The translations under genes were made by a program, and so were the position numbers. A stretch of 64,000 nucleotides of DNA from contig JAVHPE010000126.1 in assembly GCA_036170475.1 (NCBI GenBank), positions 3,999-67,998 of the forward strand. The letters are read 5' to 3'. A model generated the notes under the pieces. That model did not search any database and had not been told where the DNA came from. It worked only from the letters and a program-made list of their open reading frames with translations. The stretch comes from Bacteroidia bacterium. GTDB taxonomy: Bacteria > Bacteroidota > Bacteroidia > 2-12-FULL-35-15. Numbering within the stretch: position 1 is the stretch's first letter; each line of letters begins with the position of its first letter. This document shows, in pieces, positions 8,209-61,600 of the stretch.

Positions 8209-8538
8209 TTAATTCATTATTAATTTTGGTAGTTCAGTTGAAACGCTATTTTGGAAAGCCAATTCGAAAAACTCAGGTTTCATATAATTTATCAATGGAA
8301 ACGAAGAAATGATCTCTCTGGCTTTTGTTTCTGATTTTGCGGAAACAGTAACCCACAATTTTGAACGATCTATTGCTAAAGCATATTGAAGTATCTTACA
8401 ATCCGCCATCAATTCTTCTATTTTCGCCCGTTGATTGGGAATTAATGAAATAAATCCTTTCGTTAATTCCTTTGGCAATTGAATCATTATCATGTATGTT
8501 TTCATTTTGTAGAAATTTAATTTCATAACTAATGTCAC
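8209..8538 (-). CDS. small protein, possibly muconolactone delta-isomerase-like
   Basis: The pattern ...RAKIEELMADCKILQYALAIDRSKLWVTV...FPLINYMKPEFFEL resembles MLI-family spacing (…LWRI…LPLFPYMDIEV). The true start is probably an internal Met (MKTYMIMIQ...). Confidence 0.3.
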   Translation of the reverse strand: MTLVMKLNFYKMKTYMIMIQLPKELTKGFISLIPNQRAKIEELMADCKILQYALAIDRSKLWVTVSAKSETKAREIISSFPLINYMKPEFFELAFQNSVSTELPKLIMN

Positions 8539-9780: not shown

Positions 9781-11049
9781 TTAATGATCATTTAATGGCA
9801 AACCTCTTTTCTGGTATTCAATCCAATTAAGATATTCATCCCCTTTCCGGTGTTCCACCATGGTAATACAATCATTTACCGGACAAACGATCTTACATAA
9901 ATTACAACCAACACATTCTTCTTCTTTAATTGTATAGGTGTTGTATGGAATTGCTCTTTCCACGGTAATTGCCTGATGAGATGTGTCTTCGCAGGAAATA
10001 TAACATAATCCGCAATGAATACATTTTTCCTGATCGATATTAGCTTCGATATGAAAATTGATGTCCAGCTCTTCCCATCTGGTAATTTTCGGAACGGATA
10101 AACCTATAAAATCATCGATACTTTTATAACCTCTTTCATCCATCCAGTTACTCATTCCATCACATAAGTCGGTAATAATTTTAAATCCATAAATCATTGC
10201 AGCGGTACAAACCTGCACATTACTTGAACCCAGGAGCATAAACTCTACCGCATCTTTCCAGGTGGTTATGCCACCAATACCGGAAATAGGGATATTCCGT
10301 AATTTAGCTTCCTGAGCAAGTGTTGTTACCATTTTCAAAGCAATTGGTTTTACAGCAGGACCACAATATCCACCAAAAACAGACTGTCCACCTACATTTG
10401 GATTTGGAACAAGTGTACCTAAATCAATTCCGGTAACGGATTGTATTGTATTAATTAGTGAAAGTCCATTTGTGCCACCTTCAAAAGCAGCAATTGCACC
10501 GGGAACGGCAGAATGAACATTGGGGGTAAGTTTTGTAATTACAGGAATTGATGCAACTTCCATTACCCATTCAACAACCATTTTTGCAATTTCAGGATCT
10601 TGTCCAACAGCAGCACCCATCCCTCTTTCAACCATTCCATGCGGACATCCGAAATTTAATTCTAATCCGTGAGCACCGGTATCCTGGGCTTTCTTAACCA
10701 GTTCATGCCAGCTTTTTCTGTCGTTATCAGCCATCAACGAAACAATCATAGCACGGTCTGGAAACAGTTTTATCACTTCTTTAATTTCTTTCAGATTTAT
10801 TGCAAGTGGCCGATCCGAAATAAGTTCTATATTATTAAAACCTACTGCTTTTCTTCCGTTATAGCTAAGTGCAGAATATCTTGATGACACATTTTTAACC
10901 TGGGAGCCAAGTGTTTTCCATACTACTCCGCCCCACCCTGCCTCAAATGCACGTAGAACATTTGTTTTTTTATCAGTTGGAGGAGCTGACGCTAACCAAA
11001 AAGGATTGGGCGATTTTATGCCTAGAAAGTTTGATTGTAAATTTGCCAT
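9781..11049 (-). CDS. preA: NAD-dependent dihydropyrimidine dehydrogenase subunit PreA (DHOD-like TIM barrel plus 2x[4Fe-4S] ferredoxin)
   Basis: FLGIKSPNPFWLASAPPT...GWGGVVWKTLG...NFGCPHGM is the DHPD/DHOD fold. The C-terminus CIHCGLCYISCEDTSHQ...CVGCNLCKIVCP has two 4Fe-4S motifs. Confidence 0.85.
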   Translation of the reverse strand: MANLQSNFLGIKSPNPFWLASAPPTDKKTNVLRAFEAGWGGVVWKTLGSQVKNVSSRYSALSYNGRKAVGFNNIELISDRPLAINLKEIKEVIKLFPDRAMIVSLMADNDRKSWHELVKKAQDTGAHGLELNFGCPHGMVERGMGAAVGQDPEIAKMVVEWVMEVASIPVITKLTPNVHSAVPGAIAAFEGGTNGLSLINTIQSVTGIDLGTLVPNPNVGGQSVFGGYCGPAVKPIALKMVTTLAQEAKLRNIPISGIGGITTWKDAVEFMLLGSSNVQVCTAAMIYGFKIITDLCDGMSNWMDERGYKSIDDFIGLSVPKITRWEELDINFHIEANIDQEKCIHCGLCYISCEDTSHQAITVERAIPYNTYTIKEEECVGCNLCKIVCPVNDCITMVEHRKGDEYLNWIEYQKRGLPLNDH

Positions 11050-13719: not shown

Positions 13720-14209
13720 TTTCCCGCAGATTTCGCAAATTTTCGCAGATTTTTTTCTTGGTTAACCCGTTCTATCTATTTGAGATATTTGTAAATTATT
13801 TACTTTCCTATAAATTGAATTTGAAATATTATCGGTATTGAAATTTACTAGTATTCCTAGCTTTTTACCAGACAATTTCAAGTAAGTTAATACTTGTTTG
13901 TGATGTACATCTGCAATTTGTTCTACAGATTTTATTTCAATAATAACTAAATCATTTACTATAATATCTATTCTAAAACCAATATCTAATTTTTCACTTT
14001 CATAAATTACAGGTAAGGCAACTTGTGATCTGACCTCCAGTCCTTTCTTTTTCAATTCGAACATTAAGACCGCTTCATAAACTGATTCCAACAGGCCTGG
14101 CCCAAGTGAATTGTAAACTTTAAAAATAGCACCTCTTATAATGTAAGAAATTTCATTTTCTATCATTTTCTTAATTTTTTCCGCGTAAATCCGTGAAATC
14201 TGCGGGAAA
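13720..14209. mobile_element. inverted-repeat-bounded GxxExxY gene cassette
   Basis: TTTCCCGCAGATTTC at 13720-13734 and its exact reverse complement at 14195-14209 flank the GxxExxY ORF. Confidence 0.5.
13762..14166 (-). CDS. GxxExxY protein (PD-(D/E)XK nuclease-like)
   Basis: 134 aa. GPGLLESVYEAVLMFELKKKGLEV...IDIIVNDLVIIEIKSVE is the canonical GxxExxY family signature. Confidence 0.85.
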   Translation of the reverse strand: MIENEISYIIRGAIFKVYNSLGPGLLESVYEAVLMFELKKKGLEVRSQVALPVIYESEKLDIGFRIDIIVNDLVIIEIKSVEQIADVHHKQVLTYLKLSGKKLGILVNFNTDNISNSIYRKVNNLQISQIDRTG

Positions 14210-15541
14210 CAAATATTCTAAAATCCCTTTTGCTCCATCTTTTCCAGCCTGAACAGCATCCACAACTTCTTTGCCTCCATTTACGGAATCTCCACCGGCA
14301 AAAACTCCTTTCAAATTGGTTTCAGATTTTTCATTGATAGAAATTTTTCCATTTTTATTTTGTACGGACGATTTATTCAGAAGTTCTTCGAATGGCATCT
14401 GTCCTGCAGCTTTAATCACCATATCTACATCAATAGTAAATGTTTCACCCGTATCAACAGGAGCTCTTCTGCCCGAAGCATCAGGATCACCAAGCTTCAT
14501 TTTGTTGCAAACCAATTTTTTTACGTTGCCATTTTCACCAATAATTTCTTTAGGACTAGCTAACCAAATAAATGAACAACCATCAAGTTTCGCTAAATCA
14601 AGTTCCACATCGGTACATGGTTTTTCATTTTCTGTTCTACGGTAAATCATCGTTACTTCTCTTGATCCAAGGCGTTTTGATTGTGTTGCGGCATCAATGG
14701 CAGTCATTCCCATGCCTATAACAGCCACCTTATCTCCAACGGCTGTTGAAGAATAATCATTCGTACGAAGGTCATAAACAAATGAAATAGCATCTACAAC
14801 ACCTTCTAATTTTTCACCCGGAATATCTAATGAACGTGCAATTCCAACGCCTATTCCTAAAAATACCGCGTCATATTTTTTTTGAAGATCCGCAAGTATA
14901 ATGTCCTTCCCTAACTCTTTATTATATTGAACATTAATGCCTCCAATAGAAAGAATATAATCCACTTCATTTTTACAAAACTCAGGAGTAACCTTGTAAG
15001 CTGCCACTCCATAGGTCATTAAGCCACCGCCCTTTTTTTCTTTTTCAAAAATTGTAACATCCACACCTTGCAGAGAAAGTGCGTGTGCACAAGCTAATCC
15101 GGCAGGACCGGCGCCAACAACCGCTGCTTTTTTTCCATTAGAATGATTACGTTCAAAAAGTTTCCATTTTTCCTGAATCGCTTTTTCAGTAACATATCGT
15201 TGAAGTTTAGAGATGGCTATTGGTTTTTCTTCGAGCAAATTAAATACACAAATTCCTTCACACAACTTTTCTACAGGGCAAACTTTTGAGCATCCTCCAC
15301 CCATAATATTGGAAGTAAAAATGGTTTTTGCTGAACCTTTAATATTCCCGGAAGAAATTTGTTTTATGAATAATGGAACGTCAATACTTGTAGGACATAA
15401 TTTAGTGCATGGTGCATCATAACAATTAATACACCTGTCGGCTTCAATCATAGCACCTTCAGCATGTTCAAAAGGGGGATGAACGTCAGAAAAATTTTCT
15501 ATTAAAACTTCTTTTGATAAACGATTGTTTTTGATTGACAT
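14171..15541 (-). CDS. preT: NAD-dependent dihydropyrimidine dehydrogenase subunit PreT (GltD-like)
   Basis: N-terminal Cys cluster CINCYDAPCTKLCP, then Rossmann motifs AAVVGAGPAGLACA and KVAVIGMGMTAIDAA. This is the glutamate-synthase small-subunit-like fold, with preA nearby. Confidence 0.85.
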   Translation of the reverse strand: MSIKNNRLSKEVLIENFSDVHPPFEHAEGAMIEADRCINCYDAPCTKLCPTSIDVPLFIKQISSGNIKGSAKTIFTSNIMGGGCSKVCPVEKLCEGICVFNLLEEKPIAISKLQRYVTEKAIQEKWKLFERNHSNGKKAAVVGAGPAGLACAHALSLQGVDVTIFEKEKKGGGLMTYGVAAYKVTPEFCKNEVDYILSIGGINVQYNKELGKDIILADLQKKYDAVFLGIGVGIARSLDIPGEKLEGVVDAISFVYDLRTNDYSSTAVGDKVAVIGMGMTAIDAATQSKRLGSREVTMIYRRTENEKPCTDVELDLAKLDGCSFIWLASPKEIIGENGNVKKLVCNKMKLGDPDASGRRAPVDTGETFTIDVDMVIKAAGQMPFEELLNKSSVQNKNGKISINEKSETNLKGVFAGGDSVNGGKEVVDAVQAGKDGAKGILEYLFPADFTDLRGKN

Positions 15542-16346: not shown

Positions 16347-17213
16347 TTACAGTTCCGTTAATCTACCGTAGGTTTCAGGTCTTCTGTCTCTGTAAAATTG
16401 CCAGGTACCTCTCACTTCTTCAATCATATCAAGATCAAAGTCAGCAATTAATAATTCGTCTTTATCTTCTGAGGCACAGGCAAATATTTGTCCGCGTGGA
16501 TCAACAAAATAAGAGCTTCCATAAAACTTACCTAAGTTCCAAGGTTTTTCCATTCCAACTCTGTTAATGCAACCCATAAAATAGCCATTTGCAGCTGCAT
16601 GGGCAGGTTGTTCCAATTTCCATAAATATTGCGATAATCCAGCGACCGTTGCAGACGGATTATAAACTATTTCAGCTCCATTTAATCCAAGGCATCTTGC
16701 ACCATCAGGAAAATGTCTGTCATAACAAATGTACACACCTATTTTCGCATATTTAGTTTGAAATACCGGATAACCAAGGTTTCCAGGCTTAAAGAAAAAC
16801 TTTTCCCAAAAGCCTGATGTTTGAGGAATATGATTTTTCCTGTATTTACCAAGATAGGTGCCATCTGCATCAATCACTGCAGCGGTATTATACAAAACTC
16901 CTTCCTGCTCCTTCTCATAGATCGGAACGATAATTACCATGTTGTATTTTTTCGCATACGTTGCCATCAAATCAGTAGTTGGTCCCGGAACAGCTTCTGC
17001 CGAAGCATACCATTTGTTATCTTGTCCCGGGCAGAAATAAGGAGTATTAAATATTTCCTGCAGACATAATATCTGAACTCCCTTTTTTCCGGCTTCCTCG
17101 ATATACGGAATGTGTTTTTGCACCATTGCATTGCAAATTTCTTTAATTGTTCCTTCTCCTTCAGTCATTGGAAGGCTCATTTGAATAAGTCCTGATTTAA
17201 TAATTCTTGCCAT
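16347..17213 (-). CDS. carbon-nitrogen hydrolase (nitrilase superfamily), beta-ureidopropionase / N-carbamoyl-amino-acid amidohydrolase-like
   Basis: 288 aa. Catalytic-triad context: E in LCLQEIF, K in GKYRKNHIP, C in GVYICYDRHFPD. Lies between preT and dihydropyrimidinase. Confidence 0.7.
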   Translation of the reverse strand: MARIIKSGLIQMSLPMTEGEGTIKEICNAMVQKHIPYIEEAGKKGVQILCLQEIFNTPYFCPGQDNKWYASAEAVPGPTTDLMATYAKKYNMVIIVPIYEKEQEGVLYNTAAVIDADGTYLGKYRKNHIPQTSGFWEKFFFKPGNLGYPVFQTKYAKIGVYICYDRHFPDGARCLGLNGAEIVYNPSATVAGLSQYLWKLEQPAHAAANGYFMGCINRVGMEKPWNLGKFYGSSYFVDPRGQIFACASEDKDELLIADFDLDMIEEVRGTWQFYRDRRPETYGRLTEL

Positions 17214-17361: not shown

Positions 17362-17752
17362 TTAGAGTTGTTTTGTTAAATATTTTTCTTTTGTTGTAAG
17401 TATAATACTGCTCAGAATTTTCATAAGTTCATTGCAATTATTTATTAAATTAATGTATTCTTCTTTATCTATGAAACCACTATCCGAAAGTAAATTAAGC
17501 CAATATGCCGTTTCTCTTGCTTCTTTTAATGAGATACTCATTTTGTGAATAAAATCTCTTTTTGATTCCCCTGCTAAAGCTTCGTTAATATTGGCTCCTA
17601 TGGAAGTGCCAGAACGTAAAACTTGTTTTGATAAAATAAATTCTCTCTTTTCAGACGATAAATTTTTGTAAAGTTTAATTATTAATAACGCAAAAGCATA
17701 AGATTTCCTTCCAACAATACTATCATTCTGTTTTAATAAACTCATAACTCTA
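17327..17752. mobile_element. inverted-repeat-bounded four-helix-bundle gene cassette
   Basis: TAGAGTTATGAGTTT at 17327-17341 and its exact reverse complement AAACTCATAACTCTA at 17738-17752. The ORF start codon lies inside the right arm. Confidence 0.5.
17362..17745 (-). CDS. four-helix-bundle protein (TIGR02436 / 23S rRNA intervening-sequence protein family)
   Basis: 127 aa. LSKQVLRSGTSIGANINEALAGESKRDFIHKMSISLKEARETAYWL is the family signature. Confidence 0.8.
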   Translation of the reverse strand: MSLLKQNDSIVGRKSYAFALLIIKLYKNLSSEKREFILSKQVLRSGTSIGANINEALAGESKRDFIHKMSISLKEARETAYWLNLLSDSGFIDKEEYINLINNCNELMKILSSIILTTKEKYLTKQL

Positions 17753-17763
17753 CTCTCTTAATT

Positions 17764-19143
17764 TTAAACTAAAGTAAATTTATTTCTTCTGATAAATTTA
17801 CCATATCCTTTTTCGACAAGTAATTTATTATCATCCACAGCTACATTACCTCTCAGGATTATTGTTTTGCATTTACCTGTTAATTGCCATCCTTCATAAC
17901 CGGAATAATCACAATTCATATGATGAGTTTTTGCAGAAATGGTATGCTTTTCATTCGGATCTAAAATTACTATATCAGCATCAGAACCTACAGCAATAGT
18001 ACCTTTCTGAGGATACATTCCAAATATTTTGGCTGCATTTGTGGAACTTACCTCAACAAATTTGTTCAGACTGATTTTATTTTTAATTACTCCTTCGGAG
18101 AATAATAATTCCATCCTGTTTTCAATTCCCGGAGCCCCATTCGGGATTTTTGTGAAATCGGTTGAACCCGCTTTCTTTTGTTCCCATGTGAATGGGCAAT
18201 GATCTGTCGCAACCACTTGCACAGTTCCCTGATTGATTCCTGCCCATAGACTTGTCTGATCTTTTTTCTCCCGTATCGGTGGACTCATCACCCATTTTGC
18301 AGATTCAAACCCTTTGTCATAAACAGAAGCATCGAGGACCAAATATTGAATACAGGTTTCAACAAAAATTTTCTGATTTCTTTTAGCAGCATCTCGGATG
18401 TGATTAAGCGCATCCTCGCTGGTCAGGTGTACAACATAAGATGGGACTCCTGTATGATACGCCATATCAGAAAAACGGCTTGTGGCTTCGCTTTCAGTAA
18501 TTTCGGGCTGAGATAAATAATGAAACAGAGGAGAAAGTTTCCCTTCCGATTTATGCTTCGCTACTAAGTAATCAATCATATCGCCATTGGTAGCATGAGT
18601 AGTTAATAATCCACCCTGTTTTTTTACTTCATGCATCAAGCCAATCATTTGCTTATCGTCAATCATTAAAGCACCTTTATAAGCCATGAATGTTTTGAAA
18701 GAAGTAATACCCTCTTTTTCAATCATGTCTTTTATTTCAGATCTGATTTCTTCATTAAAATCTGTTACGGACATGTGAAAAGAATAATCTCCAACAGCAT
18801 TTCCATCAGCACGACCCTTCCATTCATTTAATGCTGCGTATAAGGATTTCCCTTGTTTTTGGATCACAAAATCTATTACCATGGTAGTTCCTCCAAAAAG
18901 GGCTGCACGTGTTCCCGTTTCGTAATTATCACTGGAATAAGTCCCCATGAAGGGCATATCCAGATGAACATGAGGATCGATACCACCGGGTATTACCAAT
19001 TTGTTTTTTGCATCTATAACTATGTCCGCATTAACTGAAAGGTTGAGACCGATAAGTTTTACTTTTTCCTTTTCAATATAAATATCTGCAACATAATCAT
19101 CAGCAGCAGTTATAACTCTCCCATTTTTTATTAGAATTGACAT
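17764..19143 (-). CDS. dihydropyrimidinase / D-hydantoinase (cyclic amidohydrolase)
   Basis: ILIKNGRVITA...VIPGGIDPHVHLDMPFMGT...FKTFMAYKGALM, with metal-binding H-x-H, a carbamylated-Lys region and VVATDHCPF. Start set at MSILIKNG. Confidence 0.85.
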   Translation of the reverse strand: MSILIKNGRVITAADDYVADIYIEKEKVKLIGLNLSVNADIVIDAKNKLVIPGGIDPHVHLDMPFMGTYSSDNYETGTRAALFGGTTMVIDFVIQKQGKSLYAALNEWKGRADGNAVGDYSFHMSVTDFNEEIRSEIKDMIEKEGITSFKTFMAYKGALMIDDKQMIGLMHEVKKQGGLLTTHATNGDMIDYLVAKHKSEGKLSPLFHYLSQPEITESEATSRFSDMAYHTGVPSYVVHLTSEDALNHIRDAAKRNQKIFVETCIQYLVLDASVYDKGFESAKWVMSPPIREKKDQTSLWAGINQGTVQVVATDHCPFTWEQKKAGSTDFTKIPNGAPGIENRMELLFSEGVIKNKISLNKFVEVSSTNAAKIFGMYPQKGTIAVGSDADIVILDPNEKHTISAKTHHMNCDYSGYEGWQLTGKCKTIILRGNVAVDDNKLLVEKGYGKFIRRNKFTLV

Positions 19144-19310
19144 GTATGTTTTTTTAATCAAAGAATTTAAAATTCAATAAAAGATACAAAAATCAAATTT
19201 AATGAAATTTTCCAGAGGCTCTATATCTCACTTCCAAAATTTTATATTTTTTTGAATAAATTTTGCTTATATTTAGCTTCCTTAATTTTATAGACTTTAA
19301 AAATACTTTC

Positions 19311-21035: not shown

Positions 21036-21042
21036 GTATCCT

Positions 21043-21130
21043 CTGACAGGGTTTCAAACCCTGTTAGAGGTATTTAACGAGTTACGAAATCCGAACAAAA
21101 CCCCTAACAGGGTTTGGAACCCTGTCAGGG
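21043..21130. repeat. REP-like palindromic repeat, family 2, copy 1
   Basis: CTGACAGGGTTTCAAACCCTGTTAG ... CTAACAGGGTTTGGAACCCTGTCAG: two inverted hairpins (CAGGG-tttcaaa-CCCTG) separated by about 45 nt. Second copy at 56003-56090. Confidence 0.7.
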
Positions 21131-21165
21131 AGCGCACAATGTCGTTTAGTTAAGGAAAAACATCA

Positions 21166-21242
21166 GCCCACAGTCTTCGACAAGCTCTGACTGACCGCGC
21201 GCTGGTCATATTGAGCCTGTCGAAATATGTGCGATAGCATCT
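21166..21242. repeat. REP-like palindromic repeat, family 1, copy 2
   Basis: CACAGTCTTCGACAAGCTCTGACTGA...TGAGCCTGTCGAAATATGTGCGATAGCATC. Confidence 0.7.
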
Positions 21243-21269
21243 TAACTAAACAGCATTGAGGGAGCGCAA

Positions 21270-49088: not shown

Positions 49089-49105
49089 AAGTTTGCAAAA
49101 AGAAA

Positions 49106-49381
49106 TTATTTTTTCTTTTTACCACCTTTTTTTGCGGCAGCTTCAGCTTCAGCAGCTTTTGCAGCTTCTTCAGCAGCGGTAGCATCAGCAGCAGCTTTAG
49201 CAGCAGCTTCAGCAGCGGCAGCCTCTTCAGCAGCTTTAGCGGCGGCAGCAGCAGCGGCTTCTACTTGTGCTATTGAATCTTTTGTAGCTTTTTCTTTAGC
49301 AGCTTTTTCTTCAGCGCTTGGTCCACAAGCAGCGAATGTAAACACACCTGCTAGGGCAACTAATGTAAATACTTTTTTCAT
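49106..49381 (-). CDS. Ala/Lys/Glu-rich small lipoprotein (paralog 1)
   Basis: MKKVFTLVALAGVFTFAACG lipobox, then an AEEKAAKEKA...AAAKAAEEAAAAEAAAKAA helical low-complexity stretch and a KKGGKKKK tail. Confidence 0.65.
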   Translation of the reverse strand: MKKVFTLVALAGVFTFAACGPSAEEKAAKEKATKDSIAQVEAAAAAAAKAAEEAAAAEAAAKAAADATAAEEAAKAAEAEAAAKKGGKKKK

Positions 49382-49991: not shown

Positions 49992-50630
49992 ATGAAAAAA
50001 AACATTTTAAATTTATCCGCAATTGCAATGATTGCATTAGCATCAGTATTTACAGGATGTAAAAAAGATGATATTACTCCCCCTGTTGTTACATTAACCG
50101 GTGATGCAAGTATTACTATTCCACTTAAAGGAGCTTATACTGAATTTGGTGCTACTGCAACTGATGATAAAGATGGTACTATCACTCCTGTCGTTTCTGG
50201 AGATGTGAATACAAACCTTACTGGTACATATACTAAAACTTATACAGCAACTGATGCTGCAGGCAACGTTGGTACAGCTACAAGAACTATTATCGTAATT
50301 TATGATTTAGCTGCAATGCCAGGTACTTATACATGTACAATTTCAGGCACTCCGGATTATGTTTATACACAAACAATAACTGCTGGAACAAATAATAGAA
50401 TTATTTTTGGTAAATTTGGTGATTATGCAGGGAATACAAGTATCTACGCTGATCGCGTAGGTGAAACTATTACATTGCCTAGTCAAACAGCTGTTCAAGT
50501 TGGAACGAATCCTGCCGATAGAACTTTTTCCGGTACAGGGTCAACAACTCAAACAGGTTTTACCTTAACATATACAGAAACTACAAACGGAAATACCATA
50601 AATACTAGTGAAACCTTTGTAAAACAATAA
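49992..50630 (+). CDS. DUF5011 (Ig-like) domain lipoprotein, paralog A
   Basis: Lipobox FTGC. PVVTLTGDASITIPLKGAYTEFGATATDDKDGTITPVVSGDVNTNLTGTYTKTYTATDAAGNVGTATRTIIV is the DUF5011 signature. Confidence 0.75.
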   Translation: MKKNILNLSAIAMIALASVFTGCKKDDITPPVVTLTGDASITIPLKGAYTEFGATATDDKDGTITPVVSGDVNTNLTGTYTKTYTATDAAGNVGTATRTIIVIYDLAAMPGTYTCTISGTPDYVYTQTITAGTNNRIIFGKFGDYAGNTSIYADRVGETITLPSQTAVQVGTNPADRTFSGTGSTTQTGFTLTYTETTNGNTINTSETFVKQ

Positions 50631-50653
50631 TATTATTTTAATTTTCTAAAAAA

Positions 50654-50683
50654 GAGTCCCGAAAATTTCGGGACTCTTTTTTT
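50654..50683 (+). terminator. rho-independent terminator
   Basis: GAGTCCCG-aaaattt-CGGGACTC followed by T7. Confidence 0.75.
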
Positions 50684-50712
50684 GCACTTCAAATTCCTTC
50701 AAGCAATTTTAT

Positions 50713-50720
50713 TACCTTTG
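50713..50720 (+). promoter_or_regulatory. Bacteroidota sigma-A -7 box TAnnTTTG within a conserved motif GCAATTTTATTACCTTTGTAT
   Basis: TACCTTTG. The same extended motif recurs at 51662-51669 and 52837-52844, upstream of two other envelope genes. Confidence 0.4.
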
Positions 50721-50821
50721 TATTTGTTAAAACACATTGATTTTTCTTATTATCAATTTTTAAAAATTGATATCCCTTTTCCGGTTATTAAGAATCATTC
50801 TGACCTATTAAAATACAAAAA

Positions 50822-50999: not shown

Positions 51000-51323
51000 T
51001 TAACGCTTATTTCTTTTAATAATTTCCATAGGGTATTGTTTGGTGTGGAATACGTCTGTTATAATTACTTGATTGTTCCTGTGTTGATAAATGATCTTAT
51101 AATTGCCTTCTACTATATATCTGCTGTTTTGTTTTAAGTGTTTAAGCAGTTGTTCTTCCGATCCGGAGTCAGGAAAGTTTTGTAATTGCTCCGCCCGAGC
51201 GATTAATTTGTTAATGTATTTAATAGCGATCGTTTCCGATCGCGTTTCATGTTCAATGTAATCTTTGATCTCATCTAAACTTTTTAAAGCAAAGGGTGTC
51301 CAAGCTAGTTTTACGTTATTCAT
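51000..51323 (-). CDS. type II toxin-antitoxin toxin, RelE/ParE family
   Basis: 107 aa. WTPFALKSLDEIKDYI...RYIVEGNYKIIYQHRNNQVIITDVFHTKQ. Confidence 0.75.
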   Translation of the reverse strand: MNNVKLAWTPFALKSLDEIKDYIEHETRSETIAIKYINKLIARAEQLQNFPDSGSEEQLLKHLKQNSRYIVEGNYKIIYQHRNNQVIITDVFHTKQYPMEIIKRNKR

Positions 51324-51559
51324 TATTTGCTACCGTATTTTATTTTTACGCTTTTATGCGGTATGAGTTTTCCTTGTTTGATTTCTTTTTGCGATTGATC
51401 ATTACGGTCATAAAACTCCTCCAGTGTAAAGGGCTTTATCACTTCCTTTTTGTTTTTTATCTCTTCGTTTAAAAGCATATAAATAGCTTTTAATAGTTGA
51501 TCGCTGTCAACTATATCAACGGCTTTGTGTATTTGTTTTTTTATGGCAGTCTTTGTCAT
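51323..51559 (-). CDS. putative antitoxin / addiction-module component
   Basis: 78-aa ORF whose stop overlaps the toxin start (shared ATGA-type junction). Small helical protein. Confidence 0.5.
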   Translation of the reverse strand: MTKTAIKKQIHKAVDIVDSDQLLKAIYMLLNEEIKNKKEVIKPFTLEEFYDRNDQSQKEIKQGKLIPHKSVKIKYGSK

Positions 51560-51661
51560 TTGTCTAATATTTTAAAACAAATTTACTAATTAATCGGACA
51601 TGTGTATTCCCCGGTGGCAAAGATGTCTTGCACTCTTTTTTTTTCTCTCCTGCAATTTCAT

Positions 51662-51669
51662 TACTTTTG
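51662..51669 (+). promoter_or_regulatory. -7 box TACTTTTG in conserved motif GCAATTTCATTACTTTTGTAT, 29 nt upstream of the DUF5011 paralog C start
   Basis: Matches the TAnnTTTG Bacteroidota consensus. Confidence 0.5.
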
Positions 51670-51697
51670 TATCTTTAGCAAGTCAAAATAAATCTAC

Positions 51698-52333
51698 ATG
51701 AAAAAAAACATTTCAAATTTAATTGCTATTGCCTTTATTTTAGGCTCATTAGTCTTTGCCGGTTGTAAAAAGCCTGATAAAACAGGTCCTGTTATTACCT
51801 TAAATGGTGCAGCCAGTCAAACAATTTCTTTACAAGACACCTATACTGAATTGAATGCCACAGCAACTGACGATAAAGATGGTTCTATTACCCCAACATT
51901 TTCCGGGACTGTAAATGTAAATCATACAGGTGCTTATATTATTACATACAGAGCCACGGATGCAGCCGGCAATATTAGTACTGCAATAAGAACTATTACT
52001 GTTGTGAATGATGTTGCGGCTATGACAGGATACTATATTTGTTCAGGTTCGACTAATTATAATGACACAATAACATTTTCTCCAATAAAGAACAATAGAA
52101 TTCATTTCGGTAAATTCGGGAATTACCAGGGAAATACAAATATCTATGTAGATATTACAGGTACGGATGTTATTCTGGATAGCGTATTTGCTGTCCAGGT
52201 TGGGAGCCCTGCTCTTGACAGATCCTTTAAAGGAACCGGTGTAATAACCTCTCCAACTGTTTTTAATCTGGATTATACCGAAACTATTAATGGAGTAGCT
52301 ACAAATAAAAGTGAACTTTTTACAAAACAATAA
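51698..52333 (+). CDS. DUF5011 (Ig-like) domain lipoprotein, paralog C
   Basis: Lipobox FAGC. PVITLNGAASQTISLQDTYTELNATATDDKDGSITPTFSGTVNVNHTGAYIITYRATDAAGN. Confidence 0.75.
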   Translation: MKKNISNLIAIAFILGSLVFAGCKKPDKTGPVITLNGAASQTISLQDTYTELNATATDDKDGSITPTFSGTVNVNHTGAYIITYRATDAAGNISTAIRTITVVNDVAAMTGYYICSGSTNYNDTITFSPIKNNRIHFGKFGNYQGNTNIYVDITGTDVILDSVFAVQVGSPALDRSFKGTGVITSPTVFNLDYTETINGVATNKSELFTKQ

Positions 52334-52375
52334 TAACCTGCGTTCGATTAATAAATTCACAAAAACTGTGTGTTT

Positions 52376-52808
52376 TTCTTTTTTCTTGAAAAAAAAGAAA
52401 CAGGGCAAATGTGTAGTACACATTTGAGCCAGCATGTGTATGGCTTTCAAGAACAAACGATTCCTCCCCACAAGCAACACAACATCGCGTTTGTTCAGTC
52501 CTCACGCGCATTTCCATAAATTTATTTTTGCACAAAATGAAATTATTAACGGTGCGGCTGATGTCCACGAAAAGTGCGAACCGCAAGTTTCGTGGCGATG
52601 TTGCGTAAGGCATTTGCGGGTAAAACGAAGGCTTGTGGTTGGTTTTCGTGGTCTCCTTTTCTTTGTTTCTTTCTTTTGGAGAAACAAAAGAAAGAAAAAT
52701 CCTTTCACGAAGCTGCATTGCAAGTCAATTGGCGATATTTCTATAATCGAACTCAGGTTAAGGGTAGTGAATTTATAAAAGCCCTTCATTAATGGAAGGG
52801 CTTTTTTG
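52376..52808 (+). ncRNA. candidate structured non-coding element A (paralog of 57886-58110): sRNA or MITE-like unit
   Basis: GC-rich island with conserved blocks GGTGCGGCTGATGTC (52551), GGTTGGTTTTCGTGGTCTC (52640) and the hairpin CTTTCTTTTG-gagaaa-CAAAAGAAAG (52669-52694). A similar hairpin TTCTTTTTTC-ttg-AAAAAAAAGAA lies at 52376-52402. Mutually exclusive pairings are possible: CCACGAAAAG with CAAGTTTCGTGG or with GGTTTTCGTGG. A rho-independent terminator follows at 52779-52808. Overlapping ORFs on both strands are non-protein-like. Confidence 0.3.
52779..52808 (+). terminator. rho-independent terminator
   Basis: GCCCTTC-attaatg-GAAGGGC followed by T6. Confidence 0.65.
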
Positions 52809-52836
52809 TGTTATCTAATCCATTAAGCAATTTTAT

Positions 52837-52844
52837 TACTTTTG
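52837..52844 (+). promoter_or_regulatory. -7 box TACTTTTG in conserved motif AAGCAATTTTATTACTTTTGTGT, 34 nt upstream of the LTA-synthase-family gene
   Basis: TAnnTTTG consensus, in a motif shared with 50701-50725 and 51650-51672. Confidence 0.5.
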
Positions 52845-52877
52845 TGTGGTTGACTACAATTTTATAATTTAATCTGC

Positions 52878-56734: not shown

Positions 56735-57610
56735 CTACAAAACATTCAATAACTGTTCTTTAATTTTTTCCAATTCATCTTTCATTTGTACCACTAATTT
56801 TTGAATTCCCGCATCATTCGCTTTTGAACCAATTGTATTTATTTCGCGACCAATCTCCTGAGAAATAAAACCAAGTTTACGACCGCTGGCAGGCTCTTGT
56901 AAAGTATTCATAAAATAATCGAGATGGGTTTTTAATCGTAATTTTTCTTCCGTAATATCGAGCTTTTCAATATAATAAATCAATTCTTGCTCAAAACGGT
57001 TTTCATCTATTTTTTCTTTTTCAACGAGTTCGGCAATATTGTTTTTTATACGGGCTCTCACACTTTCAACTCTTGCGCTATCCATCCTTAAAACGTCAGC
57101 TAATAATCCGTAAATTATCCCAATGCGGGTTTGAAATTCCTTATCAAGTATTTTACCTTCATCTGAACGGAACTTTTGAAATGCATCTATTGCCTTATCA
57201 ATCGCTATTTTTACTTGCTCCCATTCTGCTTCATCTAATTCCACCACTTCTCTTTCGGCTTTCATTACATCCGGCATCTTTAACGCTAATGCCAATAAAT
57301 TTGAATTGCTCTCATTCATTTCATCAGCTAAAGCTTTCAACTCCTTATAATATGTTTTTATCAATGTTTTATTAATGGCAATCGGCAATGTTTCCTGAGT
57401 TGATTCGGTGTAAACCGATAAATCTATTTTACCACGTTCTATTTGTTTGGAAATATCGCTACGAAGTCCAAGTTCCTTTTCCTTGTATAAATAGGGTAAT
57501 CGCAAATTCAAATCCAAAGCCTTGCTGTTAAGTGAACGCACTTCAACTGTCACTTTTTTCCCTGGAATTTCAGTTACGGATTTTCCAAAACCGGTCATTG
57601 ATTTTATCAT
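56735..57610 (-). CDS. yicC: YicC/YloC-family stress-induced protein
   Basis: MIKSMTGFGKSVTEIPGKKVTVEVRSLNSKALDLNLRLP is the YicC N-domain, and the DUF1732 C-terminus ...FISQEIGREINTIGSKAND is present. Confidence 0.8.
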   Translation of the reverse strand: MIKSMTGFGKSVTEIPGKKVTVEVRSLNSKALDLNLRLPYLYKEKELGLRSDISKQIERGKIDLSVYTESTQETLPIAINKTLIKTYYKELKALADEMNESNSNLLALALKMPDVMKAEREVVELDEAEWEQVKIAIDKAIDAFQKFRSDEGKILDKEFQTRIGIIYGLLADVLRMDSARVESVRARIKNNIAELVEKEKIDENRFEQELIYYIEKLDITEEKLRLKTHLDYFMNTLQEPASGRKLGFISQEIGREINTIGSKANDAGIQKLVVQMKDELEKIKEQLLNVL

Positions 57611-57885
57611 ATATTTCTTTATTTGAAACAAATGTATGATTTTTTTATTTTACCATGCAGGTAACAAGCCTTGGGTGTACGACAAATATCCCTAACTATT
57701 TTTATTCCAAACCATACGGCAATGTCATTGAGTTATGGAACTTTCAAACATAAATGTCTCCCCAAGGTCTTCTACAGGCTTTGACTGAGTGCGCTAGGTC
57801 AGTCTGATTAAACAATTAAAAAAATTTAAAGCTCTTTGAAAATGACACAAAAAATTTTAAAATTACAGCAAACAAAAAGCATTTT

Positions 57886-58110
57886 TTCTTTTTGCTTGAT
57901 CAAAAAGAAACAAAAATTCAGTGGGGTGCGGCTGATGTCTCCCGCATAATGCGGGACGAACTGCAATTTTTTCAAGCCAAGTTTTGGCTGGTTTTGTGTG
58001 AAAGAAAAAATTGGTTTGGTTTTCGTGGTCTCTTTTTATTGCTGGCACACAATCTCGCTCATCCCGCCACAGGCGGGCTGCCGCTTTCTTTTGGAGAAGC
58101 AAAAGAAAGT
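57886..58110 (+). ncRNA. candidate structured non-coding element B (paralog of element A)
   Basis: 5' hairpin TTCTTTTTG-cttgat-CAAAAAGAA (57886-57910). Conserved blocks GGTGCGGCTGATGTC (57925), GGTTTGGTTTTCGTGGTCTC (58013), and 3' hairpin CTTTCTTTTG-gagaag-CAAAAGAAAG (58084-58109). Internal hairpins TCCCGCATAATGCGGGA and CCCGCCACAGGCGGG. Confidence 0.3.
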
Positions 58111-58187
58111 AAAATGTCCAATGAGTAAAAAAGTTATGTTTCATAAAAAAGTAATATTGTAAGTAATTGAAAAAAAATTAGCTACAT

Positions 58188-58232
58188 AGTGTGTCATTGG
58201 AAGCCTGTCGAAATATGTGCGATGGCTTCTTA
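58188..58232. repeat. REP-like repeat, family 1, half copy
   Basis: TCATTGGAAGCCTGTCGAAATATGTGCGATGGCTTCTTAA versus 21209-21247 TCATATTGAGCCTGTCGAAATATGTGCGATAGCATCTTAA. Confidence 0.6.
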
Positions 58233-58677
58233 AATTATGAGATTAGGGAAATTTGTCGTACACCCCAAGCCTTTGAACAGAAAATCTTAACGATAAGCCG
58301 GCATTTTAAAATAAAATTCATCTCAAATTTAATGAAACATTAAAACTTATTTTTCGTAGAATGTGTTCTAAAAAATTAACATCATTTAACAAAAAATGAT
58401 TGTATATGTTAAAATAAATGGTATATTGCGTAACGGTATTACATATTATCTTAAACAATCCCACAATAGTGGAGGATCAACTATAATATCCCATCAAAAT
58501 AAAAAAGTTTTTGCGAATTTTTTACTGATTAACAACAATAAGTGAGACAAAGAGATTGGAAATAATCTTTGATGATTGTCTATTATTCTTCTTTTTTAAT
58601 TTATTATTTTTTTACTAATCTGAATATAAACTGTGGGCTCATCTATAAAGCATACCGACTCTTAACTCAACCATATT

Positions 58678-61600
58678 ATGAAAAAAAAACTACCTTCACT
58701 TTTCGCAAAGAAACTGCTTTTTCTGGGTTTTTTATGTGTTGTTTCATTTAGTTCATTTTCCCAAAGTGGTAGTGTAATTATTTCACAAACTGTCCCACCT
58801 TCAGTTAATGTTTGTGATAGCGCACAGTTTATTATTAAAATTCAAAACATTACCGGCAACCCGCTTAATGGAATATTATTAAACGTGTCTATGCCCGGAG
58901 GCGTAAATTATAAAGGCTCCTTAAGTAGTTTACCTGTTGGCGTTGCGGTATCAGATATTTCCAACCTGCAAAATCCTGTTTTTGCAATACCTACAATTCC
59001 AGCGTTTAACTCTATTTTCGTACTCTTTTATGCCAATGTTGATTGTAGCATCATTGCATACCAGCAGCAGGGTAACCCTATATTAAATACCGCTACTGTT
59101 ACCTATACAAATTCAACCACCGATCAAAATATTTCAACCACTTACAATGTAAATGCGCCTACTTTAGTAATCACTACTTTTACTAATCAGTCCTATACTG
59201 GTGCTGTTGGAACATCCTTTACCAGATGCATAACTGTCAAAAATAGTGGAATCGGCTCCTTAACTTCTTTTACATTTACAGATGCGCATGGTCCTGAGAT
59301 TAGTATTTTAAGTGTGACTAATGGCATTCTTAGCGGAAACACAACCAACGATACTGTTTCTGTTTCAGGAACAGATTTTACCACTATTGGAGACGGGGAT
59401 AATTTATTTGAAAGTGGAGAATCCATTATCATTTGCGAGACTGTTAAAATAGTTGCTTGCATCCAACCGGGTGTTGCATCAAGTATAAAGGCATATTGGG
59501 GTTGTGATAATCAAACGGCTTGCCAGACTGCATCTACCACAGCTAATGTGACGGAAGTCCCTGTAGGAACCCCTGATTTAGTGATTACTCCAACTGAATC
59601 ATTTGAAACTTGTCTGGATCCCTTAATTGCCCGTAAACAGTTTTTACAAATTGTAAATATTGGTGCCGGTTCTGCCAATAATATTGCGATGGATATCTAC
59701 CAAGGTTCTTTTACAGTTCCCAACAGCAATTACCAAAATAGAATTGATGAAACCAGTTTTACTGTTCAAACAGGTATAAATGGAAGTCCTATTGTAGTTG
59801 TAGTTGACAGTGCATTAAATAATGCTACCTATTCTTGTCTTGGACCAAATCCCAAATACCGTGTTTTTCTGAGAATTCCTCTTGTTATTAATCCTATAAC
59901 TGATACTGTATATCTGAAATGGGATTCGTATGCCTGTTGCCAGATAAACAGTTGTGACAGCTCTTACCTCACTGCGGTTGCTCCCTGGGAATTTAAAGGA
60001 AAATACACCGATGCCTGCGACAGTACTGTGACGTATGACATATTCCCTACAAGCGGTGGTTCAATATATGGCAGGTATCTTAATACTTCTATGACACCGG
60101 AAGATATGCCAACTGACATAATAGGAGCAACAACTACTACCTTTGAACATTCTGCAACTAATTGGCAAAATGAACTTGATTCCGCCCCTGGAGCCTATTA
60201 CCAGGTGGAGATTACAGTTCCTCCCTGTTTTGTGCTTGCATCTAATTCTAACCCGGTAAGATTCATCTATAATCCGAATGGTACTTTCTGGTATCCCAAT
60301 TCCCCACCAACAATTTCAGGGAATGTAGTAACAGCTATTTTTACAACACCCGATCCTTTTGGGGTAAACGGACTTAGCTCATCTTCCCTTCTTTTCGATT
60401 TAACCTCTGATTGTACCAGTTGCCCGGATTCATTAAAGTGGGGGCAGAACATTTCTGTAGATATTAAATATAATGCCGATCCAAGTTGTGTAAAACCATG
60501 CCTTTTAAAGGTATACTGCAATACAAGTGCGGTAAATCTTCACTGTGGAAGTTGTGGTCCGGGATGGGGAGGAATGCAGTTTTTAAGCTATAAAATGGAA
60601 CGTACCAGTTACGGAAAACCGGATAATAACAATGATGGATTGCCTGAAGGAGGAAGCGTGAATCTGAGTGTTATTAAAAACCGAAGAGCCATGTTTGGCG
60701 ATACACTTACGGGATATTTTAAAGGAGTTATTGATACATCTCTGGCTAATCTTTCATTTCCTTATGCGTATGCCACTGCTTCAATAAATAATCTGGGTAA
60801 CTATCTTTCATTTATTGATGCCAGTGTTACTATCTTTGATAAAAGTACAGCAACAACATATACCTGCAATAATGTGCCGCCATTATCTGCTGCACCAAGC
60901 GGAAGCAACTTTAATTCAGATTTTGATATCAGCCCTTTGTATTTGAATACCAATGGCTGTACCATACCCGGAGGCTTTGTTTTTGAAGATGGTGATTCGG
61001 TATCATTGAATCACAGGTACAAAGTAATTGCAAATACCGGGGGTCCTGTTATCTCCAGCAACACTACCACTGATTTTTACGCGAGTAATATTCCTAATCC
61101 TCCACCTACTCCTAATCCGGCAAATAAATTTTCATGCGATAACTATTCCGGGAACTATGTTTCGCTTTATGGATATTATTTTAAAAGTGATACTACAGAA
61201 ACGTATGTAACTAAATCCTGTAATGCACCTATAATAAGAAACTCCAACTATATGAGCATAGGACCATGTTGCCAAAATTATGGCAGCAATAAATTCCCTT
61301 TTGAATATCGCCCTTGGGCAAATATTGATACAATTAAGGTGACAATACCTTTTGGATATGATTACGTTTCAGCCACAGTAGATGGTATCGGGCAGGTTTC
61401 TACTCCTATCAGCCCTATTAATCCATTATCTGACACATTGTTGTTTGATATGGGAGCTTTATACAGCAGCGGAACATGGTCCGATTATAGTTTTGACGGA
61501 TATGAAAATGCCATCCATGTTACAATAATACCCACCTGCAATGTAGCTAATAGCGCATTAAACCAAATTTTATATGAAGATACTCATAAAAAAGTGCCCT

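Follow-up and report, generated by a model that had tools for sequence, protein, structure and literature searches.

Element B, which occupies part of the long spacer ahead of a giant surface-protein gene, is genuine, but it is an unusual member of a multi-copy, modular structured RNA family of uncultured Bacteroidota that has no entry in Rfam 15. The sequences show that the family is real, that its helices covary and that its RNA is read from the + strand. To the fuller reading, in which B is a copy of a structured non-coding RNA gene family that is regulatory and has spread as the cargo of MITE-like shells, we give roughly even credence.

Element B and its sister copy A

Within the window (the whole 64,000-nucleotide stretch of DNA that was analysed), yicC (56735-57610, - strand) diverges from a surface-protein ORF that starts at 58678 on the + strand and encodes at least 1774 aa with a PKD-like domain, and element B lies in the 1067 nt that separate the two; the earlier note had placed B between yicC and a giant adhesin gene, and that location holds. 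The B unit has the following parts, L141 being a related metagenomic locus.

57802-57884, + strand: left flank of the B unit, kept in L141 at about 90% identity
57836-57839 and 57859-57866, + strand: promoter-like TTTG, a 19-nt spacer and TAAAATTA, in the left flank
57885-57910, + strand: 5' AU-rich hairpin, TTTCTTTTTG-cttgat-CAAAAAGAAA, an optional module of the RNA family
57925-57939, + strand: block 1, GGTGCGGCTGATGTC, a conserved 5' segment read as single-stranded
57940-57956, + strand: B-specific GC hairpin TCCCGCATAATGCGGGA, that is UCCCGCA-UAA-UGCGGGA
57964-58013, + strand: P2/P3 helix, CAAUUUUUUC (57964-57973) with GAAAAAAUUG (58004-58013), around a 'type 1' apical domain
58017-58033, + strand: block 2, UGGUUUUCGUGG, which is the family's P1 3' strand, then UCUCU (58029-58033), the P4 5' strand
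58040-58083, + strand: optional hairpin domain, GCUGGCA ... CCCGCC-ACA-GGCGGG ... UGCCGC
58063-58077, + strand: GC hairpin CCCGCCACAGGCGGG, apex of the optional domain
58084-58115, + strand: 3' hairpin (58084-58109), CTTTCTTTTG-gagaag-CAAAAGAAAG, as RNA CUUUCUUUUG-GAGAAG-CAAAAGAAAG, plus the conserved tail UAAAAU
58116-58201, + strand: right flank of the B unit, kept in L141

A short segment of the right flank, UGUGUCAUU at 58190-58198, is complementary to one of the left flank, AAUGACACA at 57844-57852. Element A, which carries the full consensus fold, lies between a stop codon (52331-52333) and a terminator (52777-52805) and is enclosed by a 17-nt inverted repeat (52334-52350 with 52744-52760); at a paralogous locus, 50631-50694, the terminator follows the stop codon directly.

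52373-52700, + strand: element A, sister copy of B
52375-52400: 5' hairpin of A
52451-52459 with 52488-52496: M hairpin of A
52523-52530: TATTTTTG box of A, promoter-like
52565-52573 with 52643-52651: P1 of A
52579-52587 with 52632-52640: P2 of A
52669-52694: 3' hairpin of A

The two hairpins of B, both its GC hairpins and the blocks it has in common with A are present and are not products of chance. The window contains 15 perfect stems of 9 bp or more with a loop of 4-8 nt; in 30 dinucleotide shuffles the mean was 4.1 and the maximum 10. The four hairpins of A and B account for 8 of the 15. Block 1, GGTGCGGCTGATGTC, is exact in both elements, two copies where 0.46 matches would be expected at up to 3 mismatches; TGGTTTTCGTGGTCTC is also exact in both, and the elements agree at 30 of 32 bases in the 3' hairpin and at 27 of 30 in the 5' hairpin. 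B is indeed a second copy of a conserved-block element, as had been proposed from the window.

A covarying fold on the + strand

Relatives were collected by protein-database search with the open frame that runs through the element ('GAADV...GFRGL'); over successive searches the set of spurious ORFs returned from Bacteroidota assemblies grew from 11 to 19 and then to 44 cluster representatives (about 45 relatives). Seven DNA copies were available, namely A, B, L141, L182, L183 (L183/L184), L185a and L185b, the last of these having been found by nhmmer in the L185 contig, 7.4 kb from L185a. L141 was the one real hit among 40 matches in a pattern scan of metagenomes; a scan of genome contigs with GCGGCTGATGTC-N6-30-CGAAC proved too loose, giving 120 chance matches in high-GC genomes. 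Nothing came of two viral sequence scans for the element, of database look-ups with P0002, P0122 and the spurious ORFs of the window itself, or of a literature search for the block sequences. Rfam 15 gave no gathering-level match over the whole window, and its best matches over 57600-58700 had E-values of 2.7-8, far below gathering scores; over five related loci it found only Flavo-1, DUF805 and tRNA, none of them on the element. The copy density, two in 64 kb in the window and two in 16 kb in L185, with tandem copies in P0139 and P0166, suggests tens of copies per genome. Such numbers would be more usual for a dispersed repeat than for an ordinary small-RNA gene.

The consensus opens with two optional hairpins, a 5' AU-rich one and the 'M' hairpin, followed in order by the conserved single-stranded GGUGCGGCUGAUGU, a long rod, P4 with the 3' hairpin, and a purine-rich tail. 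The rod pairs CCACGAAAA...AACYGCAAK with MUUG.GGUU...UUUUCGUGG and is made up of helices P1 and P2, a variable P3 and a variable tip; P4 pairs UCUCU with GGAGA in the loop of the U-rich/A-rich 3' hairpin, and GGUGCGGCUGAUGU and UCUCUUUUUCUU are left unpaired. Palindromic hairpins had been described as bracketing B, and both are there, with about 173 nt between them, but they are not the true boundaries of the family: the 5' hairpin is missing from three of the seven copies (L182, L183, L185a) and elsewhere lies upstream of block 1 by anything from 14 nt (B) to about 150 nt (A), and conservation runs beyond the 3' hairpin into WAAAAU, plus CGAAGCU in 3 copies.

The long-range helices were proposed by RNAalifold. 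Block 1 (CCACGAAAA..AACYGCAAG) pairs with block 2 (CUUG.GGUU..UUUUCGUGG) as the long rod in six of the seven copies, and in six of seven the rod is also the MFE fold; the two blocks are conserved because each pairs with the other. Across these seven copies, two of which come from one genome, 91.5% of cells are paired against 42-51% when the partners are slid, five pairs have changed on both sides, and the observed covariation score was reached by 0 of 500 shuffles. P3 covaries fully (UUUCGU/ACGAAG, UUUUGU/ACAAAA, UUGCUC/GAGCAA, UUUUUUC/GAAAAAA), and P4 is UCUCU/GGAGA except in both copies of the L185 genome, where it is UGUCU/GGACA. In the 3' hairpin of L185b one U-A pair is missing from both arms. 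Pairing in the 5' hairpin is kept by compensatory changes: A and L185b have U-A as the innermost pair where B and L141 have G-C, and the second pair, U-A in A, is A-U in L185b. Three P1 pairs also carry compensatory changes that follow of necessity from amino-acid substitutions in the spurious ORFs, in four events (P0129 HKK/FCG; P0148 HQM/FGG; P0155 HEQ/VRG; P0130 HGK/...FP). Since G.U cells exceed A.C cells by 13 to 1, the RNA is read from the + strand, and the covariation of the helix between the blocks favours RNA as the explanation of the core. In B the loop bases GGAGA (58093-58097) pair with UCUCU (58029-58033), and P4 and the 3' hairpin could form a pseudoknot or represent two alternative folds.

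Two other pairing schemes were rejected. A local helix UGCGG/CYGCA is altered on one side only by the 'CVDV' and 'RVDV' peptide variants, and the change of CCGC to CCAC in L185a improves P2 and breaks this local helix. The hammerhead core is CUGAUGA ... GAAA with A9, an A15.1-U16.1 pair and three stems; read as a hammerhead or kink-turn, CUGAUGU-stem-CGAAC would have U instead of A9 and C instead of A15.1, there is no Rfam hammerhead match, and the bases of the supposed 'stem II', CCACGAAAA, pair with block 2.

The frame used as a query might itself be a small protein gene, the 78-aa ORF at 57892-58128 or its relatives, given that GAADV...GFRGL is open in A, B and L141 and is a called gene in about 45 database entries. 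The frame changes midway in P0130, P0158, P0162, P0164 and P0165, so for practical purposes this reading is refuted; in addition, there is no conserved start codon, A and B show no peptide similarity between the blocks (the middle domain), and the substitutions that occur together are precisely the ones by which RNA pairs are preserved. We consider a protein-coding role extremely improbable.

Element B departs from the family fold at helix P1. P1 pairs at 9 of 9 positions in each of the other six copies and at 6 of 9, not contiguous, in B, whose MFE fold has no P1; the GC hairpin at 57940-57956 stands in place of the P1 5' strand CCACGAAAA(GUG), and B is therefore structurally atypical. Both extra hairpins that had been noticed in B, TCCCGCATAATGCGGGA and CCCGCCACAGGCGGG, are present, but the first is a replacement of this strand and not an addition. 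The second belongs to the optional domain, which is found in B, L141 and L182 (where AAAUACCU/AGGUAUUU replaces the apical stem) and not in A, L183 or L185. The 'type 1' apical domain of B recurs in L182 and L183, and L141, whose backbone is otherwise that of B, has 'type 2'. B is a mosaic of an L141-like backbone and an L182-like central domain with the P1 5' strand lost, and for this reason it may be an altered or decaying copy. Its block 2 would have no partner and would be permanently exposed.

Nested repeats in the spacer

B is nested in a copy of a miniature element, MITE C, and MITE C in a 603-nt inverted-repeat unit.

21137-21258 (21127-21268 with flanks): intact MITE C without cargo
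57668-57695: left arm of the outer inverted repeat, GCCTTGGGTGTACGACAAATATCCCTAA
57720-57801, + strand: left half of the MITE C copy around B, 70% identical to 21137-21208
58202-58246, + strand: right half of the MITE C copy around B, including GCCTGTCGAAATATGTGCGAT, 94% identical to 21214-21245, with 0 chance matches expected
58243-58270: right arm of the outer inverted repeat

The intact MITE C has a perfect 10-nt target duplication, AGGGAGCGCA (21127-21136, 21259-21268); the terminal inverted repeats of MITE C are 18 nt long and 89% complementary, and its fold z-scores are -4.5 and -5.7. The copy around B opens with CAATGTC, the same terminus as at 21137, and L141 has the same right MITE C segment after its B-like element. 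The outer arms (28 nt, 89% complementary, 547 nt between them) bound the 603-nt unit 57668-58270, and Logan contigs from the yicC side end at 57707, 30 nt into a repeat that starts near 57678. The comparison with related strains for which the earlier note had called gave a partial answer: in a relative with a 92% identical YicC the spacer is 456 nt instead of 1067 nt, and this 611-nt difference, judged on lengths only, matches the 603-609-nt outer unit and not B alone; L129 and L174, from relatives whose YicC is 89-91% identical, have spacers without homology to this one, which are therefore uninformative on empty sites. About 600 bases of the yicC-adhesin spacer were apparently added by nested miniature transposon-like repeats. 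Shells differ by copy, being MITE C for B, another inverted-repeat shell for A, and a Flavo-1-like shell for L182, which is enclosed by a 45-nt inverted repeat with one arm a Flavo-1 match. We infer that the copies spread by duplication, by recombination between copies and by carriage in such MITE-like shells.

MITE or RNA had been offered as alternatives, and each stands for one part: RNA for the core, by its covarying helices, and MITE for the shell, that is C and the outer repeat, but not for the core. We think it improbable that B is a plain MITE, a non-autonomous DNA transposon whose terminal hairpins are its inverted repeats and which has no function at the RNA level. The terminal hairpins are alike, so that their outer arms could form a terminal inverted repeat (in A these arms are complementary over 37 nt at 76%, each hairpin being itself a palindrome); the copies are multiple and without coding capacity, B lies among true MITEs, and a close relative's spacer is about 611 nt shorter. 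Assembly contigs also end at 52390 and 52683, 30 nt inside A from both sides, as at the edges of a repeat. Set against this, no direct repeat that could be a target duplication was found around the hairpins of A or B, three of the seven copies lack the 5' hairpin, the internal helices persist in distant genomes through compensatory changes and strand-specific G.U changes, and the relative's length difference is that of the outer unit, not of B. The simpler reading of the contig ends is a repeat spanning 52361-52712, where a k=31 assembler usually stops 30 nt inside; they fit this equally as well as a precise-excision allele of A (junction of 5' left arm, CTTGAA and 3' right arm), and that candidate was dropped.

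The edges of this repeat lie 13-14 nt (left) and 15-18 nt (right) outside A's hairpins, and two similar same-strand hairpins a few bases inside the repeat edges are what a PATE-like remnant of an IS200/IS605 element would have, its hairpins serving as left and right ends for TnpA in trans and its RNA as an orphan omega-RNA-like scaffold for TnpB or IscB encoded elsewhere. Omega-RNA-encoding PATEs are documented, and like the element here they have end hairpins on one strand, neither terminal inverted repeats nor target duplications, no ORF, a structured RNA at the right end and many copies (PMC10055086). There is no inverted-repeat or target-duplication signature here, and the right end directly adjoins a strand-specific structured RNA with variable sequence after it. 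On the other side, TnpA, TnpB and IscB were not found in the window or in the L182-L185 loci, no Rfam omega-RNA, HEARO or IS605-orfB model matched even at E-values up to 1-10, no conserved motif was detected beside the left end in A, B, L141 and L185b, and the left hairpin is often missing. The AU-rich homopurine/homopyrimidine stems of these hairpins are also unlike the known IS200/IS605 ends. We judge such an origin unlikely.

Finally, the spacer could hold regulatory DNA specific to the adhesin, either an invertible promoter cassette (inverton) at 57668-58270 or B as a cis leader, in which case the giant surface protein would be phase-variable. A 28-nt inverted repeat around 547 nt does lie upstream of the giant gene, the + strand of the spacer has no canonical TAnnTTTG box elsewhere, and the repeat arms of A and B contain GCGTTCGA and GTGTACGA, which resemble the Mpi site ACGTWCGT. 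The contig ends at 57707, 52390 and 52683 are nevertheless off the inner ends of the inverted repeats, where inversion would make sequences diverge; no recombinase is encoded in the window, the same B-like unit precedes an unrelated gene in L141, and a terminator blocks read-out from A. Genes downstream of the other copies are unrelated. Nothing ties B functionally to the adhesin gene, and we regard this explanation as highly unlikely.

Transcription and likely function

A sigma-70-like site is predicted at 57836-57863, in the left flank of B, and both promoter-like boxes there are kept in L141, where the sequence is TAAAATTG. The Bacteroidetes promoter consensus is TTTG / TAnnTTTG; B differs from TAnnTTTG at two positions, a weak match. 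In A the TATTTTTG box lies 20 nt before block 1, and a promoter-like box at a fixed distance before block 1 is found in A, L182 and L185b. Most copies have no canonical intrinsic terminator after the 3' hairpin, and only A has one, about 80 nt downstream. The genes downstream of the copies are unrelated (the adhesin, a sulfatase behind the terminator of A, LpxK and two unknown proteins), so that no constant class of downstream gene, as looked for in a cis-leader or riboswitch, was found across the DNA copies.

These features bear on the possibility that the family is an RNA repeat dispersed through intergenic regions, like BOX, ERIC or Correia elements, with no promoter of its own, co-transcribed in the 5' or 3' UTRs of its neighbours and altering mRNA stability, processing or translation by its fold; this we consider a fairly unlikely alternative. 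A falls exactly between a stop codon and a terminator and so is in a 3' UTR, and at the paralogous locus the terminator comes directly after the stop; six of the seven copies are oriented as the downstream gene, the build is modular with optional modules and mosaic and tandem copies, most copies are without a terminator of their own, and copy density is apparently high. Opposed to it are L185a, which lies between two - strand genes and is antisense to both, the promoter-like box at fixed distance in three copies, and the invariance of the single-stranded blocks across genomes, which suggests a sequence-specific partner and not a generic stabilising hairpin. BOX of pneumococci, ERIC/IRU of enterobacteria and Correia of Neisseria are, like the family here, short, non-coding, multi-copy, modular with optional modules, intergenic, co-oriented with genes, folded as RNA and able to lie in UTRs. 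They are in essence long hairpins whose arms are inverted repeats within the element itself, with target duplications in Correia and ERIC. The core of the present family is more than a simple foldback: it contains unpaired blocks that do not vary, it pairs a loop with a strand (P4), and it is conserved across distinct species-level genomes.

Under the reading that we prefer, a family of regulatory RNA genes, the RNA would most likely act in trans, as one of a set of paralogous small RNAs each transcribed from its own promoter, with TTTG-N19-TAAAATTA at 57836-57866 as the candidate in B and the TATTTTTG box in A, and the conserved unpaired segments would be its working surfaces. The weak promoter match of B, the scarcity of terminators, the co-orientation of six of the seven copies (which also fits co-transcribed UTR elements) and the lack of P1 in B count against this reading. 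It is also conceivable, at a rather lower level of confidence than the family reading itself, that this is a mobile regulatory RNA gene, which spreads within and between Bacteroidota genomes as shell cargo, swaps modules by recombination, and seeds post-transcriptional regulators or guide-like RNAs beside surface-protein genes.

A close parallel lies in the same phylum. Bacteroides has 14 paralogous FopS small RNAs, and B. thetaiotaomicron another six-member family encoded next to transposases (PMC11697453). Like the family here, these families (FopS/GibS and the six-member family) have many paralogous copies per genome at intergenic, antisense and 3'-UTR sites, conserved single-stranded segments beside structured parts and a possible link to mobile DNA (PMC11697453). 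FopS RNAs are 65-70 nt long with a single-stranded 5' seed and a terminator hairpin (PMC11697453), whereas the RNAs described here would measure 145-330 nt, have a long rod and optional modules and lack a canonical terminator, and there is no sequence or Rfam match between the two. Flavo-1 (RF01705) is likewise a Bacteroidetes intergenic motif to which no function is assigned, and as one arm around the L182 copy it serves as a shell in the way that MITE C does for B; it differs in sequence and structure, and none of A, B and C matches it. Flavo-1 matches in F. psychrophilum lie sense, antisense or outside transcripts (PMC9723704), a placement expected of a DNA repeat.

A protein-database search with a spurious ORF of a non-coding element was an effective way to gather relatives. 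The family would add a well-supported structured RNA to a phylum with a poorly charted RNA biology. Bacteroidota are generally considered to have neither Hfq nor ProQ and to rely little on Shine-Dalgarno pairing. The presence of several copies in transposon-like inverted-repeat shells offers a concrete setting for the question whether regulatory RNAs are carried as passengers by miniature transposons, and the long 'leader' of the giant adhesin gene would be largely nested mobile DNA and not dedicated regulatory sequence.

Element B and its relatives

Element B (about 57885-58109) is a conserved-block element in the spacer between yicC and an adhesin-like gene. The earlier note had described it as a second copy of the blocks of element A (52373-52700), with hairpins at both ends and extra hairpins inside, and the sequence agrees: A and B have two exact blocks (block 1 and block 2) and both hairpins in common, and B lies inside a 1067-nt divergent spacer between the genes listed here.

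Features at the element B locus
57885-57910, + strand: 5' hairpin of B, TTTCTTTTTG-cttgat-CAAAAAGAAA
58084-58109, + strand: 3' hairpin of B, CTTTCTTTTG-gagaag-CAAAAGAAAG
57940-57956, + strand: GC hairpin, TCCCGCATAATGCGGGA
58063-58077, + strand: GC hairpin, CCCGCCACAGGCGGG
56735-57610, - strand: yicC, one side of the spacer
58678 to beyond the window end: surface-protein ORF with a PKD-like domain, other side of the spacer

The window contains 15 perfect stems of 9 bp or longer, versus 4.1 in shuffles, and eight of the 15 belong to the four hairpins of A and B. Another perfect hairpin (49097-49120), AAAAAGAAA-TTATTT-TTTCTTTTT, has the same arms in reversed order; it lies in a 1.2-kb gene-poor stretch after a PIF1-like helicase gene, and nhmmer found no family member there.

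B matches no Rfam family, tRNA or tmRNA, and a metagenome search gave one true match only, the locus L141. A, B and L141 share a single open frame (…GAADV…GFRGL…), the translations of which were used as bait for protein-database searches, which returned 11 and then 19 "hypothetical proteins", with 44 cluster representatives at 50% identity. The retrieved ORFs are all short and lack Pfam domains, and the named source organism, where given, is a Bacteroidota MAG. We rejected a protein family, since several members change frame midway, the start codon is not conserved among members, and peptide similarity between the blocks is absent when A and B are compared. Related DNA copies were recovered at L182, L183 (L184 is identical) and L185a, and nhmmer found L185b on the opposite strand, 7.4 kb from L185a. 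Translations of the protein-only records P0139 and P0166 contain tandem family copies about 45-120 nt apart; the first copy in P0166 is a miniature, with almost nothing between block 1 and the 3' hairpin. L183 also carries two identical DUF805 RNA motifs (13128-13196 and 13859-13927, 69.9 bits apiece), and each precedes a gene of 131 aa; motif and gene are a tandem duplication.

Structure and strand of the RNA

RNAalifold, applied to six copies, predicts pairing between block 2 and the 3' half of block 1, and the fold has four helices.

Helices of the family fold
P1: CCACGAAAA with UUUUCGUGG
P2: AACYGCAAK with MUUG.GGUU
P3: variable helix closing a variable tip, of which there are two types
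P4: UCUCU with GGAGA in the loop of the 3' hairpin

Across seven copies 91.5% of cells are paired, versus 42-51% when the partners are slid; five pairs show both-sided changes, and none of 500 shuffles reached the observed covariation score. P3 differs in sequence yet keeps its pairing in every lineage, P4 is UGUCU/GGACA in both copies from the L185 genome, and P2 of L185b has changed from G.U to G-C and from C-G to U-A. The spurious peptides served as independent covariation events, since some amino-acid changes determine the nucleotide. Thus E to K with R to C gives an A-U pair (P0129), E to Q with R to G a C-G pair (P0148), K to Q with F to V a C-G pair (P0155), and E to G with S to P, in a shifted frame, a G-C pair (P0130); a single member, P0146, has two pairs broken. 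The P1-P2-P3 rod appears in single-sequence MFE folds of six of the seven copies, and there are 13 G.U cells to 1 A.C cell, which identifies + as the folding strand. The family is a conserved + strand RNA fold, present in several copies per genome and tied to no gene family. A pure MITE is unlikely, as the covariation is strand-specific and a target duplication is absent.

The 5' and 3' hairpins are kept as hairpins across copies. The innermost 5' pair is G-C in B and L141 and U-A in A and L185b (a compensated change), the second is A-U in L185b with both sides altered in step, and one U-A pair is missing from both arms of the 3' hairpin in L185b. The earlier note took the two hairpins as bounds, and they do bracket B, but the 5' hairpin is absent from L182, L183 and L185a and conservation extends past the 3' hairpin; they are thus modules rather than boundaries. 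A PATE- or omega-RNA-like origin would fit hairpins at both ends with an RNA at the right end (PMC10055086), although no TnpA, TnpB or IscB was found in the window or at L182-L185, and the family has no conserved end motifs or model match.

B alone among the seven copies lacks P1: the place of the strand CCACGAAAA(GUG) is taken by a stable hairpin, UCCCGCA-UAA-UGCGGGA, while its block 2 is identical to the consensus. L141 is about 90% identical to B over 57828-58228, flanks included, but has P1, a 76-nt M-type hairpin that B lacks, and a type 2 tip, whereas the centre of B is type 1, as in L182 and L183. B is a mosaic copy, and it may be a damaged one.

Transposon-like shells

Repeats and genes around the copies
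21137-21258 (21127-21268 with repeats): intact 122-nt palindromic MITE C, with 18-nt terminal inverted repeats and a perfect 10-nt target duplication, AGGGAGCGCA, abutting both ends
57668-57695 with 58243-58270: 28-nt outer inverted repeat enclosing C::B
52334-52350 and 52744-52760: 17-nt inverted repeat (16/17 bases) around A, TAACCTGCGTTCGATTA / TAATCGAACTCAGGTTA, TA at both outer ends, in the 3' UTR of an Ig-like protein gene
49992-50630 and 51698-52333: Ig-like surface-protein paralogues, about 211 aa each, 1 kb apart
L182 7834-7878 and 8294-8338: 45-nt inverted repeat around the L182 copy, right arm an Rfam Flavo-1 hit (8307-8385)

C, which has a ceramidase gene on one side and an Ala_racemase_N-domain gene on the other, is a textbook MITE. 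Just upstream of it, the REP-like hairpins CCTCTGACAGGGTTTCAAACCCTGTTAGAGG (21040-21070) and CCCCTAACAGGGTTTGGAACCCTGTCAGGG (21101-21130) together form a BIME-like 32-nt inverted repeat. The halves of C recur in order at 57720-57801 and 58202-58246, 400 nt apart, and the gap holds B and its flanks. L141 also has these flanks and the right half of C, before an unrelated gene, so C::B is dispersed as one whole unit. A relative with a 92% identical YicC has the same divergent yicC/PKD-like pair 456 nt apart; since 1067 minus 603-609 leaves 458-464 nt, gene coordinates alone indicate that it probably lacks the whole outer unit.

A lies between the stop codon of the second Ig-like gene and that gene's terminator, and of the two paralogues only this one has A; in the other the terminator follows the stop codon immediately. 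The inverted repeat around A is possibly a TA-targeting MITE shell, or else a processing stem. Between the paralogues is a small - strand gene pair (about 51000-51559), one with a ParE_toxin domain in the annotation of contig L172. The promoter block AAGCAATTTTATTAC(T/C)TTTG recurs at 50695-50721, 51652-51670 and 52819-52845, in each case 30-50 nt upstream of a gene start; the Bacteroidetes TAnnTTTG box is part of it.

In a flavobacterial transcriptome, Flavo-1 hits are sense, antisense or outside transcripts (PMC9723704), as suits a DNA repeat. The Flavo-1 match in one arm of the repeat around the L182 copy suggests that Flavo-1 may, in some cases at least, be a palindromic repeat of DNA and not an RNA gene. 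Logan contigs with identical flanking genes end at 57707, 52390 and 52683 in many samples, as expected at k=31 if one repeat begins near 57678 and another covers 52361-52712. Another Logan contig, L127 (SRR25490542), diverges from the window downstream of gmk into (TTAGGG)n-like repeats and is probably a chimera into which eukaryotic telomere reads were assembled. The window encodes no transposase or recombinase. Of two small genes (13762-14166 and 17362-17745), one carries a PDDEXK_3 domain and the other encodes a 23S-rRNA-intervening-sequence protein; both are interspersed in a putative reductive pyrimidine catabolism cluster.

Genes of the putative pyrimidine cluster
9781-11049 and 14171-15541: DPD-like
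16347-17213: CN_hydrolase
17764-19161: amidohydrolase

Proposed function

Neither an inverton nor an adhesin leader finds support. The reading favoured below competes chiefly with a BOX- or ERIC-like repeat acting in the UTRs of neighbouring genes, with which the 3' UTR location of A, a downstream gene in the same orientation in six of seven copies, and the lack of an own terminator in most copies agree. We infer that the family would be a regulatory RNA, and favour paralogous small RNAs, each with its own promoter. A has a TATTTTTG box 20 nt upstream of block 1, in a region kept in L182 and L185b, and B and L141 have a TTTG-N19-TAAAATTR motif upstream of the 5' hairpin. Interactions would take place at the invariant unpaired GGUGCGGCUGAUGU and at the U/C-rich segment that follows block 2.

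Rfam 15 holds no matching family, and the block sequences occur in no paper found by literature search. A structured multi-copy RNA is a known kind of thing in bacteria, with Bacteroides precedents for such small RNAs in the 14-member FopS family and a six-member family encoded beside transposases (PMC11697453); new here are the particular fold, its modular build and its nesting in transposon-like shells.
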